64,000 bases of DNA, taken from IMG/VR virus record IMGVR_UViG_3300033757_000347, one strand, 5' to 3'. Every line of letters starts with the position of its first letter. The stretch's first letter is position 1. Below, piece by piece: positions 36,024-53,376 of the stretch. The translations under genes and the position numbers were made by a program. Source of the stretch: a virus. Taxonomy: Duplodnaviria; Caudoviricetes. The notes below the pieces were generated by a model. It did no database searches. It had not been told where the DNA came from and was given only the letters and a program-made list of their open reading frames with translations.

Positions 36024-36626
36024 ATGTTACCAAAGGATAAAGAATGTCCATTTTGTCATAAATTTTATTCTACTGCAGGAATAGGTACACATATTTGGAG
36101 AAACCACGGAGAAGGCAAACAACACGATCCAAATATTAATTACAAAAATGGACGTATTGTGTGGAATAAAAACTTAACCAAAGAAACTAACGAAAGTGTT
36201 AAAAGCATGGCTGAAAAACAAAAAGCTTTGGTTAGACCTAAAAAATCTGAAGAAACTCGTAAAAAAATATCGATTGCTGCAAAAGCTAGAGGATTTGGAG
36301 GGTATCGGCCTCACCCAAATAGAGGCGAACGATACAAAGGAATTTGGTTTGATTCCAAATGGGAAGTTAAAGTTGCTAAATCTTTAGACGAAAATCAAAT
36401 AAGATGGGAAAGACCGAAAATCGGATTTGTTTGGTCTGACGCCGGAAATAAGTACTATCCTGATTTTTATCTTATAGATTACGACGTATATTTGGATCCT
36501 AAAAATTCGTATTTGATGATTAAGGACGCTGAAAAAATACACGAATCTCAAAAACGAAACAATATTAAAGTTCTAGTATTAACTGAACACTTCCTTAATT
36601 GGGAAAAAATAAAATTGCTCTTGTAG
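36024..36626 (+). mobile_element. PD-(D/E)xK homing endonuclease
   Basis: FDSKWE, YYPDF, YLDPKN; NUMOD-like SEETRKKIS. Confidence 0.8.
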
Positions 36627-36687
36627 TTAAATGGCATAACGCATCCTTGGTAAGGATGAATTTCGAGTTCGATTCTCGATTTGAGCT
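36617..36687 (+). tRNA. tRNA-Thr(GGT)
   Basis: CATCC-TTGGTAA-GGATG. Confidence 0.8.
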
Positions 36688-36690
36688 CAC

Positions 36691-36886
36691 AGTTAATCGA
36701 AAGTACTTAACGCGGGAAACTGAGGAAATTGGTGCCACCTTTGCTGGTTGTCGGAGCTTAACAGCGTTCGTACGACATTGGTGCAAGTCAAACAGGCTTA
36801 GAGGGTCAGCAACTCTACGATAGCCGGGTTGATGCTAAGATAAATGTTAGGTGAGAAACAGAAGTCCAATTACGAAACGATTAACT
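36691..36886 (+). ncRNA. rnpB: Minimal RNase P RNA-like ribozyme (about 196 nt)
   Basis: P1 AGTTAATCG/CGATTAACT; P2 ACTTAAC/GTTAGGT; GAGGAAATTGG and AAACAGAAGTCCAATTA (P4); GGTGCAAG; AGATAAATG. Confidence 0.75.
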
Positions 36887-36890
36887 TTTT

Positions 36891-36962
36891 GCAGGAATAG
36901 CTCAGAGGTAGAGCATCTCGTTGCCAACGAGAGGGTCGTGAGTCCGATTCTCATTTCCTGCT
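36891..36962 (+). tRNA. tRNA-Gly(GCC)
   Basis: Loop TT-GCC-AA; U73. Confidence 0.85.
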
Positions 36963-37016
36963 CAGATCAAGGTTAAGTGCAAAGGTTCACATATAAATAA
37001 AATAAAGTGATTTTGC

Positions 37017-37622
37017 ATGAAAACCAAAAGAGAATTGATAAACGAAAAAATAAGTAAATCATTAAAAGGTAGAGGAAATCCTAAATCTATAAAGATTTGC
37101 GAACACTGTCAAACTAAATTTGAAGTAGAATGGCGAAAACGAAACCAAAGATTCTGCAGTCGATCGTGTAGAGCAAAATCCATAAAGTTTTCAACCGAAT
37201 CAATTCAGAAAATGTCTATTAGTAAGAGCGGAGAAAACAATCCAATGTTTGGGGTTTCACCGAAAAATACTAAGAAAATTGAAGTTTATTCAGAAAAACA
37301 TTTAGGTAATAAGCAGTTCTTAGTAAGATCCACTTATGAAAAAGAATACGTTGATACTCTTACTTCTAATCCTAAAGTCGTATCTTTTGAATATGAACCT
37401 CGTAAATTCAAGTGCAAGTATTTCATAAATGGAAAATACCGAACGTATCAACCAGATTTCTTGGTAAATGAAATAGACCGGGAATACGTTATTGAAATAA
37501 AAGCAAGTTGGCAAATAGAAAGTGAAGAAACACAGCTTAAAGCTAACGCATTTAGATCAACTCATCTAATCAATTATGAAATAATTACTGACACATGCAG
37601 AAAGAGTGTATACGGAAACTGA
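37017..37622 (+). mobile_element. TnsA-N-like homing endonuclease
   Basis: VRSTYE, FEYEP, YQPDF, IEIKA. Confidence 0.8.
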
Positions 37623-41131: not shown

Positions 41132-42760
41132 ATGACAAAGTTCAGAAACGCAAATCTTCGTACTAAGCTTGCCAAGACGGCGCCTAAGGCGAAGTTAGTA
41201 GCTGCTAACGCAGTTCCTACGCCTAACACTGTCAATCGTTCGGGCCACGCGGCTTATGCGATCGACAAGTGGTTGAGACTGATCACAATGCTCAACACCT
41301 TGAAGCTGGAAAACCAGTTCTACAGGTCAGAAAATGAAACCATGAGGGAACTCAAGGGCATCGTTACTGCCTGTGCAAAGGAAGATCCTTACCTAACCGC
41401 ACAGTGCATCGTGTACTCACGTTGCGTTGGTGAAGGTATGAGGTCGATCAACCACCTCGCAGCAAGCTACCTCGCTCCTTACTGCGCTGGTCTCGAATGG
41501 GCGAAGAGGTTCTACTCACTGTGGAACAAGAAGACTCAGTCTGGTGGAACCATTTTCCGTCCAGATGACATGGCCGAAATTCTCGCCTGTTTCTCGGCTA
41601 TGAACAAGACGAAGGCAACGAACTCAATGAAGAAGGGTTTCGCAGACGCAATCGAAAGGCTCGACGCATACTCGATCCTTAAGTACAAGTCCGCTTTGAT
41701 CGACGTTATCAACCTCGTTCACCCTGACCCAAAGCAGTCGAAGGCATTCGTTGAATTCAAGGGCGAAAGGGTGACCGCTATCGACGCTGTCATCAAGGGC
41801 TTGGCCGTATCTGCCGACACCTGGGAAGTTGCTAACTCTGACGCAGGTCAGGAAGTTGCAAAGGCCGTAAAGGCTGGCAAGATCACCAAGGCCGAAGGTG
41901 CAGAAATCCTCAAGGAAGCTAAGGCTGAAAACTGGGGAGCTCTGTTGACCGAAGGTAAGCTAGGTACTCTAGCAGCTCTGCGTAACATCAGGAGCATTCT
42001 GAACACGGTCTCCGATCGTGCGACGATTGACAAGCTGTGCGCGGTTCTGTCGGATCCAAACCTTATCAGGCAGGCAAAGATCATGCCTTACCAGATCGAC
42101 ATGGCCGGCGAAATTCTGCTCGCAGAATTCGGCTCGAAGATGGACGGAAGGAAGATCGCTCAGGCTCTGTTGATCGGTTACGAAGCATCCGTTCCAAACC
42201 TTGCGGAAGCATTGCCAGGAAGGAACCTCGTTATCATCGACAGGTCCGGCTCCATGACCACGAAGATGGTCGACCCTAACAGGAAGACTCAGTACTCAAC
42301 GTCATGTGCTGACAAGGCATCCTTGATCGGAGCAACAATCGCGAAGGCAACAAACGCTGACGTTATTCAGTTCGGATCGAGCGCTCACTACACTCCATGG
42401 AACGCAAACCAGGACGTATTCTCGATCGCAAGGTCGTTCAATGCTAACCTTGGTGGAACCAACCTAAGCACCGCTTGGGATCTGGCAGCACGTTCCGGAA
42501 AGGCGTACGACAGGGTGTTCATCCTCTCTGACAACGAATGCAACCGTGGAAACACGTACTCTTCGTACACGAACTACCTGAGGACTGTTGGAAACCCATA
42601 CGTCTACTCTGTAGACATGGCGTCCTACGGCACGACTCAGCTGATCGGAGACAAGGTCCGTTTCTACTACGGTTACGGCTTCTCGATGTTCGACGACATC
42701 GCCAACGTCGAATTCAATCCTACATACCACCTGGACAAGGTACGTAAGATCGTAATCTAA
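41132..42760 (+). CDS. Ro60/Rsr-like TROVE-domain RNA-binding protein with C-terminal vWA domain
   Basis: VNRSGHAAY, QFYRSE, ALRNIRSI, MIDAS DRSGSM, GGTN, ILSDNE; 542 aa. Confidence 0.85.
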   Translation: MTKFRNANLRTKLAKTAPKAKLVAANAVPTPNTVNRSGHAAYAIDKWLRLITMLNTLKLENQFYRSENETMRELKGIVTACAKEDPYLTAQCIVYSRCVGEGMRSINHLAASYLAPYCAGLEWAKRFYSLWNKKTQSGGTIFRPDDMAEILACFSAMNKTKATNSMKKGFADAIERLDAYSILKYKSALIDVINLVHPDPKQSKAFVEFKGERVTAIDAVIKGLAVSADTWEVANSDAGQEVAKAVKAGKITKAEGAEILKEAKAENWGALLTEGKLGTLAALRNIRSILNTVSDRATIDKLCAVLSDPNLIRQAKIMPYQIDMAGEILLAEFGSKMDGRKIAQALLIGYEASVPNLAEALPGRNLVIIDRSGSMTTKMVDPNRKTQYSTSCADKASLIGATIAKATNADVIQFGSSAHYTPWNANQDVFSIARSFNANLGGTNLSTAWDLAARSGKAYDRVFILSDNECNRGNTYSSYTNYLRTVGNPYVYSVDMASYGTTQLIGDKVRFYYGYGFSMFDDIANVEFNPTYHLDKVRKIVI

Positions 42761-49416: not shown

Positions 49417-50556
49417 ATGAACGCAGTAGTCATAGGCCTCGGCTTCGGAGACGAGGGTAAGGGTCTAACGACCGACTTTCTGGTCAGGCAGCTGCAGAAA
49501 ACAGGTAAAGTGATAGTCGTCAGATTTTCTGGCGGCCAGCAAGCAGGACACACCGTCGTATCTAAGAATGACGGTGTGTCTCATGTTTTTTCGAACTTCG
49601 GTTCTGGAACCTTGGCTGGAGCATCCACTTACTGGTCAAAATTCTGCACAGTCGACCCAGTTGGAGTCGTTAGAGAATCAAACATACTGAGAGAAAAAGG
49701 AGCGCGACCTCTTCTGTACATAGATGAGGATTGCCCAGTGACAACCCCATACGATAAGATAGACAACCAACTCCGGGACAGAGCTAACGGAACCTGCGGA
49801 ACAGGGTTCGGTTCGACTCTGAAAAGAGAAGAGAACTGGTACTCTCTAAAAGCCGGAGACTTAAAGTTTCCGTCCATCCTCGACATGAAGTTGGAACAGA
49901 TTCGAAAGTATTACGATAAGGTAAATCCTGAAATCGGCAAGATCGCAGAAGCTCACATGTTCGATTTTTTGAATGCCTGCGCAAGCTTACGGTTCTCGTC
50001 AAACTTTGTCATTCAGAAGAGTTTTCCGTATCACAAGCACATCGTTTTCGAAGGTTCGCAGGGACTGATGCTCGACATGAACCATGGAATATTTCCGCAC
50101 GTCACTAGGTCAAAAACTGACACTACTAACGTGCCGGAAATTCTTAAGAGCGAAGATTTTGAAATTTACCTAGTGACAAGAGCTTACCAAACCCGTCACG
50201 GAAACGGGCCGATGACTAACGAGAAGATGCCGATTTCCTTAAAAAACACGGACGGCGAAACGAACCAACTGAACGAATTTCAGGGCACCTTCAGAAAGTC
50301 AATATTGGACTTAGACTTGCTGAAATACGTCATCCAGAAGGACCCTAGGCTATGCGAGGGTCACCACAACGTGAACTTAGTTGTGACTTGCTTGGACCAG
50401 CTGGAGAACTACGTTTACACGGAAGGCGGAGCGATGATCACTCTTCACTCTCCTAGTGAATTCGTGAATCACATATCAACCCGGTTGGGAATACAGTTCA
50501 ACAAAGTGTACTACAGCGAATCACCAGATTCCAAAAATATGATGCAACTACCATGA
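49417..50556 (+). CDS. purA: Adenylosuccinate synthetase-like protein (PurA family)
   Basis: GFGDEGKG, RFSGGQQAGHTV, FEGSQGLMLD, TRHGNGP. Confidence 0.8.
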   Translation: MNAVVIGLGFGDEGKGLTTDFLVRQLQKTGKVIVVRFSGGQQAGHTVVSKNDGVSHVFSNFGSGTLAGASTYWSKFCTVDPVGVVRESNILREKGARPLLYIDEDCPVTTPYDKIDNQLRDRANGTCGTGFGSTLKREENWYSLKAGDLKFPSILDMKLEQIRKYYDKVNPEIGKIAEAHMFDFLNACASLRFSSNFVIQKSFPYHKHIVFEGSQGLMLDMNHGIFPHVTRSKTDTTNVPEILKSEDFEIYLVTRAYQTRHGNGPMTNEKMPISLKNTDGETNQLNEFQGTFRKSILDLDLLKYVIQKDPRLCEGHHNVNLVVTCLDQLENYVYTEGGAMITLHSPSEFVNHISTRLGIQFNKVYYSESPDSKNMMQLP

Positions 50557-52834: not shown

Positions 52835-53260
52835 ATGGACACTTACATAGATCACAAGAACGTGGTGAAGAGACTCGTGGACGAGTACAAGTTCCACGGA
52901 GGTTTGGTGGTAGCGTACGATTTCGACAACACTGTGTACGATTATCACAAGAAGGGGGACACCTACGACATGGTAGTAGACCTTCTAAAAACCTTGGAAA
53001 AAGTTCCAGGAATAAGCTTAGTGGTTTGGACCGGAACTGCTAACGAACGTCACGATTTTGTAAGAGTCTACCTTCAAGCAAACGACATTCCGTACCACAC
53101 GATAAACGAGAACCCATCTTTCTTCAAATCTTCGAGTAGAAAGATCTTTTACAGCATTCTTCTCGATGATAGAGCTGGTTTAGCTTCAGCGTACAATGCT
53201 CTGGTTGACTTTTTGAACGAAATTGGGGTACAGTATTCTTACGAAAAACTGGGTTCGTAG
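52835..53260 (+). CDS. HAD-family phosphatase
   Basis: AYDFDNT, VWT, INEN, LLDDRA. Confidence 0.8.
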   Translation: MDTYIDHKNVVKRLVDEYKFHGGLVVAYDFDNTVYDYHKKGDTYDMVVDLLKTLEKVPGISLVVWTGTANERHDFVRVYLQANDIPYHTINENPSFFKSSSRKIFYSILLDDRAGLASAYNALVDFLNEIGVQYSYEKLGS

Positions 53261-53322
53261 TTCAGCGGTAGAACACCGGTCTCTAAAACCGTTAGTCGAG
53301 GGTTCGAATCCCTCCGTTCCCA
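53251..53322 (+). tRNA. Amber suppressor tRNA (anticodon CTA) with a Trp-like scaffold
   Basis: CCGGT-CTCTAAA-ACCGT; T arm GAGGG-TTCGAAT-CCCTC; two U:U mismatches in the acceptor stem. Confidence 0.8.
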
Positions 53323-53376
53323 CCGTGGTCATTTTGTACCTTCGCTAAGATAAATAATCAAAAGTGAAGTTACAAA

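Follow-up and report, generated by a model that had tools for sequence, protein, structure and literature searches.

The window analyzed here, a stretch of 64,000 nucleotides from an IMG/VR virus record (IMGVR_UViG_3300033757_000347), contains at positions 36692-36885 of the plus strand a real, conserved and structured RNA gene of 194 nt which is a miniature RNase P RNA. That this RNA is a homologue of RNase P RNA appears close to certain. We give a probability of roughly 70% to the reading that it is a phage-borne RNase P RNA of class A descent, consisting of the catalytic domain only, which together with bacterial RnpA would form the enzyme maturing the 5′ ends of the tRNA array in which it lies. 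The first-pass annotation of this DNA, made from the letters alone, had already proposed a phage RNase P RNA without specificity domain at 36691-36886. Its limits agree with the ends of helix P1 within one base. The covariance-model search it had named as a check returned a match to RF00373, the helices and conserved regions of the catalytic domain are complete, and covariation across six lineages supports the fold.

The locus and its covariance-model matches

The record holding the window comprises 174,479 bases and is estimated to be 67% complete. It carries 44 tRNA genes (ARAGORN) and also encodes T4-type topoisomerase II subunits and a ribonucleotide reductase. Among deposited sequences, those nearest to it by topoisomerase (52% identity) come from uncultured huge phages of 634-642 kb. 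Near-identical DNA was found in anaerobic-digester runs and partial matches in wastewater and sludge runs. Spacers within the tRNA array are mostly 5-15 nt long, homing-endonuclease ORFs are dispersed across it, and the 3′ CCA is encoded by 14 of 43 tRNA genes only. The candidate RNA occupies a 202-nt gap between tRNA-Thr(GGU) (36617-36688; Rfam tRNA 54.3 bits), which ends 3 nt ahead of P1, and tRNA-Gly(GCC) (36891-36963; 65.6 bits) directly downstream, both on the plus strand and both predicted by ARAGORN. Scans around the RNA locus for sigma-70 promoters and terminators, and of the whole window for a Bacteroidota-type promoter consensus, gave nothing above shuffled sequence.

Two ORFs of about 200 amino acids flank the unit of tRNA, RNase P RNA and tRNA. 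The upstream one (36024-36626) has no Pfam match and the downstream one (37017-37622) carries NUMOD3 and TnsA-like endonuclease domains; endonuclease ORFs resembling the latter are scattered in the array, which fits the mosaic pattern seen among relatives. Within the array, a 542-aa protein with TROVE/Ro60 and vWA domains (41132-42760) served us as synteny anchor. Further downstream, a 379-aa ORF (49417-50556) matches phrog_1211 (PurZ-type adenylosuccinate synthetase, E 1e-49) and may be a sign of 2-aminoadenine DNA, and a tRNA with a CTA anticodon (53251-53324; amber suppressor, Pyl by ARAGORN) lies remote from the main array.

RF00373, the archaeal RNase P family, matched 36676-36880 over model positions 1-288 with 37.7 bits in E-value mode (E = 2e-9 on 401 bases, 2e-10 on the whole 174-kb record). 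The alignment runs end to end with the specificity domain alone deleted. The score lies under the gathering threshold of 84, as the scores do for every Rfam gathering threshold, and a search of the locus region at gathering thresholds reported tRNAs only. Neither RF00010 (bacterial class A) nor RF02357 (type T) matched the record at E ≤ 10. Since RF00373 also matched nine bacterial genomes used as controls, the name of the best hit is uninformative on archaeal origin. A second RNase P-like element or a separate specificity domain was not detected in the record, where the other RF00373 matches score 7.8 and 5.7 bits. The same model scored 50.5 bits on the relative L088 (group 2, see below; E 1e-11), 40 on L220, 32.4 on L162, 26.3 on L135 and 25.3 on L145, and the model R1 also matches in relatives. 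Matches of 67 nt to R1 in L027, L030, L031 and L032 sit in a conserved coding region and were discarded as chance.

Aligned to the RF00373 consensus and to E. coli rnpB, the conserved regions CR-I, CR-IV and CR-V come in the right order. The minimum free energy of the single sequence was no better than that of shuffles (z -0.2), nor was that of the opposite strand; as the fold contains two pseudoknots, this is to be expected and tells nothing about it. Two helix assignments were dropped. The P3 drawn by cmscan itself (CAGUU/AACUG), with P1 and P2 extending into tRNA-Thr, is not kept in L014. A local 5′ hairpin (36693-36697 with 36706-36710) showed apparent covariation in L014 and was rejected because the L014 changes are compensated in the 3′ strand of P2 and because P1 and P2 hold in all lineages.

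Anatomy of the miniature RNA

The window RNA can form helices P1-P6 and P15-P17, both pseudoknots included (all features on the plus strand). P1 joins GUUAAUCG (36692-36699) to CGAUUAAC (36878-36885) over 8 bp and is followed by UUUUU. Its sequence is wholly different in other lineages and still pairs, with 7 of 7 scored pairs (36693-36699 with 36878-36884) changed on both sides. P2 is formed by CUUAAC (36706-36711) and GUUAGG (36846-36851), shows compensatory changes in L008 and L014 and has five of its six pairs changed on both sides. The first-pass annotation had described P1 and P2 both as terminal helices; this is right for P1, whereas the 3′ strand of P2 has the final G of CR-IV as its first base, an arrangement shared with E. 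coli M1 RNA. P3 is reduced to a 3-bp mini-hairpin, CGG-GAAA-CUG (36713-36722), whose G-U pair becomes A-U or U-A in relatives; the helix is larger in L104, L145 and L162. CR-I (J3/4, GAGGAAA, 36722-36728) corresponds to the RF00373 consensus and to nt 61-67 of E. coli rnpB. It runs into the 5′ strand of P4, AAUUGG[U]GC (36727-36735, bulged U at 36733), which pairs with GUCCAAUU (36864-36871). All eight P4 pairs are formed in 100% of the sequences and seven are changed on both sides, and the helix was also upheld on a structure-blind alignment.

P5 pairs CACC (36736-36739) with GGUG (36780-36783), replaced by CAUC/GAUG and AACC/GGUU in other lineages. The P6 pseudoknot links UUGCUG (36741-36746) to CAGCAA in the loop of P17 (36807-36812). 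Its counterparts elsewhere are CUGCUU/GAGCAG, CCACUC/GAGUGG and, in L162, CUUCUU/GAGAAG, and four of six pairs change on both sides. J5/15 (CAA, 36784-36786) is the counterpart of GCAAG at nt 246-250 of the E. coli RNA. The following arm (36787-36833) is built from P15 (36787-36790 with 36830-36833), P16 (36795-36798 with 36822-36825) and P17 (36799-36803 with 36813-36817), all three of which covary; on the 3′ side of L15, GGGU (36826-36829) includes a GGU kept in all lineages. CR-IV (AGAUAAAUG, 36838-36846) agrees with the RF00373 consensus; the corresponding E. coli sequence ahead of the P2 3′ strand is AGAUGAAUG. CR-V (J2/4, ACAGAA, 36858-36863) agrees with both the RF00373 consensus and E. 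coli rnpB. P18 is absent. Within the lineage of the window CR-I, CR-IV, CR-V, J5/15 and the GGU of L15 are invariant.

The motifs named in the first-pass annotation were all found where it had placed them (GAGGAAATTGG at 36722-36732, GGTGCAAG at 36780-36787, AGATAAATG at 36838-36846 and AAACAGAAGTCCAATTA at 36856-36872), and the P4 it had drawn between the CR-I-like and CR-V-like elements (AAUUGG 36727-36732 with CCAAUU 36866-36871) is supported by covariation. It had missed the P6 pseudoknot as well as the displaced bulge in P4, and had misplaced P2.

Between the strands of P5 there are 40 nt only, made up of the 5′ strand of P6 and a stub of 29 nt (36749-36777) which stands in place of the specificity domain; P7-P14, CR-II and CR-III are missing. 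The stub consists of a 5-bp outer stem, a 3-bp inner hairpin and an asymmetric internal loop. The sequence of this loop (RA on the 5′ side, GUUNNUA on the 3′ side) is kept in six lineages while both flanking stems covary. A variant of the inner stem in an RNA-library contig combines 36758 U>C with 36763 A>G and is compensatory.

The universal bulged U at the fourth position of the P4 5′ strand is not at that place in the window. Here the bulge follows pair 6, three base pairs from the usual place, and the canonical register would give 6 of 8 pairs only, with mismatches. The change of U36865 to C in L021 turns a G-U into a G-C pair and supports the pairing beyond the bulge. The canonical form, AAN[U]NNNNN, is found in groups 2-6 and at 27 further loci, whereas the displaced form with its first six pairs continuous is found in group 1 and in L164. 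In Thermotoga maritima the universal uridine contacts a catalytic metal ion, and its substitution or deletion lowers activity about 13-fold; it is described as strictly conserved and as not irreplaceable (PMC3488217).

In order and topology the RNA shares P1-P6 and P15-P17 with E. coli M1 RNA (rnpB, NC_000913.3; RF00010), and the elements follow each other as in rnpB: CR-I, P4 5′ strand, P5, P6 5′ strand, J5/15, P15, L15 GGU, CR-IV, P2 3′ strand, CR-V, P4 3′ strand and P1 3′ strand. Traits shared with class A are the GAGGAAA of CR-I, a CR-IV of the form AGAURAAUG passing at once into the P2 3′ strand, ACAGAA of CR-V followed by an 8-nt P4 3′ strand, a P6 between J5/7 and the P17 loop, the GGU of L15 and, in one carrier phage, a bacterial-type RnpA. 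In contrast, the phage RNA has 194 nt where the E. coli RNA has 377, carries the 29-nt stub instead of P7-P14 with CR-II and CR-III, lacks P18, has a P3 of only 3 bp and, in the lineage of the window, a displaced P4 bulge; it has no RF00010 match and is viral, lying inside a tRNA array.

Type T RNAs of Thermoproteaceae (Pyrobaculum; RF02357) are likewise about 200 nt long and consist of a catalytic domain without recognizable specificity domain. They are archaeal and cellular and work with Pop5, Rpp30 and L7Ae (PMC3579882, PMC13462272), whereas the phage RNAs are viral and keep a bacterial-style P15 with L15 GGU as well as P6, and one carrier encodes RnpA. Given these bacterial features and the lack of an RF02357 match, the reduction in phages looks like an event independent of type T. 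Engineered C-domain RNAs (Eco CP RPR and the Pfu C-domain; PMC5839562) also pair a catalytic domain with the loss of the S-domain. They are laboratory truncations of reduced efficiency, whereas the phage RNAs are a natural conserved gene family. In that setting a class A C-domain cleaves substrates with and without protein, P18 is dispensable and activity relies on an interaction of P6 type (PMC5839562). The phage RNA conforms to this minimal active design, with a true, covarying P6.

Relatives, covariation and selection

We gathered relatives by pattern scans of viral contigs and metagenomes, by a search anchored on Ro60 and by blastn against deposited phages. Six diverged lineages emerged, with members in two published huge-phage genomes as well as in viral contigs and metagenomes: group 1 (the window, L008, L006, L014, L082 and L021), group 2 (L088, L052, L061 and L068; 177 nt), group 3 (L104 and L145), L135 (249 nt, on a 373-kb contig), L160 (the 595-kb phage LR756511.1) and L162 (the 642-kb phage LR756502.1; 205 nt, L162:362-566). 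Roughly 45 members of the family were collected in all, and members span 177-250 nt. A broader pattern returned 33 more viral loci, 28 of which have at least 7 of 8 P4 pairs; a perfect P2 5′ strand stands 16-33 nt upstream of CR-I in 27 of these, L193 having only 4 of 6. As a chance control, the same pattern was run on about 185,000 cellular genomes and gave 32 matches. Two passed the P4 test, both of them short contigs of metagenome bins, a result suggesting an essentially viral family. Where a pattern match lacked P4 complementarity, we treated it as a chance find (14 of 18, 5 of 33, 30 of 32 and most of another scan).

Blastn of the window region against cultured and deposited phages returned tRNA matches only. 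Queries from groups 2, 4 and 5 found two uncultured huge phages only and no cultured carrier. Loci anchored by Ro60 at ≤74% protein identity showed no such RNA within 10 kb.

Covariation was scored on 11 hand-annotated helices in 14 sequences of five lineages, each strand being found by string search in the expected order; L162, the sixth lineage, was checked separately. All 11 helices covary. Among their 52 pairs, with 98.8% canonical cells, 42 change on both sides and 10 never vary. Complementarity was 0.98 when strands were paired with their own partners and 0.64 across lineages, the respective values for P1 being 0.98 and 0.37. Because hand annotation can flatter a model, we added an independent count on a structure-blind MAFFT alignment, in which 21 pairs (P4 core, P5, P6, P15 and P17) have their strands in the same columns. 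Here 99.6% were paired compared to 81.7% in shuffles (0 of 500), and 15 pairs changed on both sides compared to 7.2 expected. Sliding the partners by 1-3 columns left 26-45% paired. Mean column identity among the relatives is 56%, and they are not recent copies of one sequence.

In two comparisons RNA identity is 97% and 93%, against 78% and 73% for the nearby Ro60 genes; judged by these identities, the RNA is under purifying selection. The L014 pair is reversed (RNA 88%, Ro60 97%), which points to mosaic exchange within arrays. RNA-library contigs from related phages part from the window sequence exactly at 36691 and 36886, the two limits of P1. Group 2 lies in an array different from that of group 1, which sits between tRNA-Thr and tRNA-Gly, and takes up precisely the space separating tRNA-Arg(ACG) from tRNA-Cys(GCA). 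Among the 28 further members, a tRNA is located within 2 kb in 19 cases and directly adjoining in 11; no tRNA lies near L104, L135 and L160. The element also occurs in assembled metatranscriptome contigs (four libraries, at least three studies), in which DNA carry-over is possible; they document the module with its limits. The RNA-library contigs, mostly of related phages, do not cover the flanking ORFs and are uninformative on transcription.

Three loci had features of their own. In L021 (2069-2206; the same as L150) an insert of 138 nt with a 33-codon remnant of a GIY-YIG homing endonuclease follows the P15 3′ strand and precedes CR-IV, at the place that P18 occupies in bacteria; the RNA is otherwise intact, with P1 and P4 compensated. 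L220 (2065-2257, minus strand) is a 193-nt member among 10 tRNAs on a 13-kb contig binned as Saccharofermentanales, a label that could be a hint to the host or reflect a mis-binned phage contig. L218 (496-682, minus strand), on a metagenome-bin contig labelled 'uncultured archaeon', is a 187-nt RNA whose 111 bits to RF00373 exceed the gathering threshold although the model is about 100 nt longer; it is a candidate for an archaeal-type RNase P RNA of very small size.

Protein partner, function and alternative readings

The first-pass annotation had considered that the RNA might mature the array, perhaps with relaxed specificity, or might need a partner in trans. The idea of a partner gains some support from one related huge phage which encodes RnpA along with such an RNA. 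In LR756502.1, a record without annotation, a predicted RnpA homologue of 122 aa (L196:1435-1803, equal to LR756502.1 525123-525491; PF00825, 52.4 bits, with the RNR motif) would tie the RNA family to the bacterial type of holoenzyme. In the record of the window, 67% complete, neither PF00825 nor the RnpA of LR756502.1 as query found a match, and RnpA was absent from G001, G002, G003 and LR756511.1, four of the five other carriers examined. The partner is therefore taken to be host-derived, and these data suggest that most carriers borrow the RnpA of their host. Bacterial RnpA contacts P2-P4 and CR-IV/V of its RNA. P2-P4 and CR-IV/V are the best-conserved parts of the phage RNA.

In the reading we favor, the RNA would be transcribed within the polycistronic tRNA array and released by the cuts made at its neighbours: tRNA-Thr would be trimmed at its 3′ end, and cleavage by RNase P at the 5′ end of tRNA-Gly would set the 3′ end of the RNase P RNA. 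It would bind bacterial RnpA, host-encoded as far as the 67%-complete record shows, and the holoenzyme would act on the 44 tightly spaced tRNA precursors, cutting their 5′ leaders and the spacers of 5-15 nt. The GGU of L15 would pair with the 3′ CCA where the gene encodes it (14 of 43), and measurement of the tRNA elbow by the S-domain would be dispensed with. The benefit might be extra tRNA 5′-maturation capacity under phage control during infection.

We consider it unlikely that the ribozyme is independent of bacterial RnpA, acting alone or with an unrecognized phage protein and using the stub as a small substitute for an elbow reader. The absence of RnpA from the record of the window and from four related carriers would fit such an enzyme, and so would the conserved internal loop of the stub between covarying stems; yet one carrier does encode RnpA, and the regions that RnpA contacts are those best conserved. 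C-domains alone are active in vitro (PMC5839562), but activity of RNA alone requires unphysiological salt and amounts to 0.05 relative to the holoenzyme (PMC3488217, table), and the function ascribed to the stub is purely conjectural. A non-catalytic decoy or regulator, which titrates host RnpA or binds pre-tRNAs and so redirects host tRNA processing, seems quite improbable. It is kept alive mainly by the displaced P4 bulge in the lineage of the window and in L164, which could mean a weakened active site given the loss of activity upon changes to the universal uridine. This uridine is nevertheless not irreplaceable (PMC3488217), other lineages keep the canonical bulge, and a decoy would not need all of CR-I, CR-IV, CR-V, J5/15 and L15 GGU, which are invariant within the lineage.

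A functionless, decaying fragment of a captured cellular rnpB is hard to reconcile with compensatory changes that maintain all helices across six lineages, with an RNA evolving several times slower than the neighbouring protein gene, with precise tRNA boundaries in two unrelated array contexts and with relatives as diverged as 56% mean column identity. Scores under the Rfam gathering thresholds and the endonuclease remnant inside the gene in L021 would agree with decay, which we nonetheless regard as very improbable.

A wider proposal, which we put forward tentatively and hold to be rather doubtful as a whole, is that large phages own an RNase P of their own: a stripped-down ribozyme, in some cases with a phage RnpA, that would mature the arrays independently of host rnpB and without a substrate rule based on measuring the elbow. 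Such an enzyme could also process tRNA-like modules of the Y-RNA type near Ro60, and the lineage of the window would then possess a re-arranged, working active site.

Our literature searches found no description of a phage-encoded RNase P RNA, the nearest item being diverged RNase P RNAs in CPR bacteria (PMC8172020). The unannotated members in LR756502.1 and LR756511.1 show that annotation pipelines miss such RNAs. RNase P RNA is regarded as a cellular and organellar ribozyme. The position of the P4 bulge bears on how fixed the metal-binding uridine is. The family would offer a compact scaffold for the catalytic core and for substrate recognition without S-domain, with covariation data ready-made, and a second, independent natural experiment on minimal RNase P RNA after type T of Pyrobaculum. 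A conserved viral version would add a ribozyme to the translation-related gene set of big phages.
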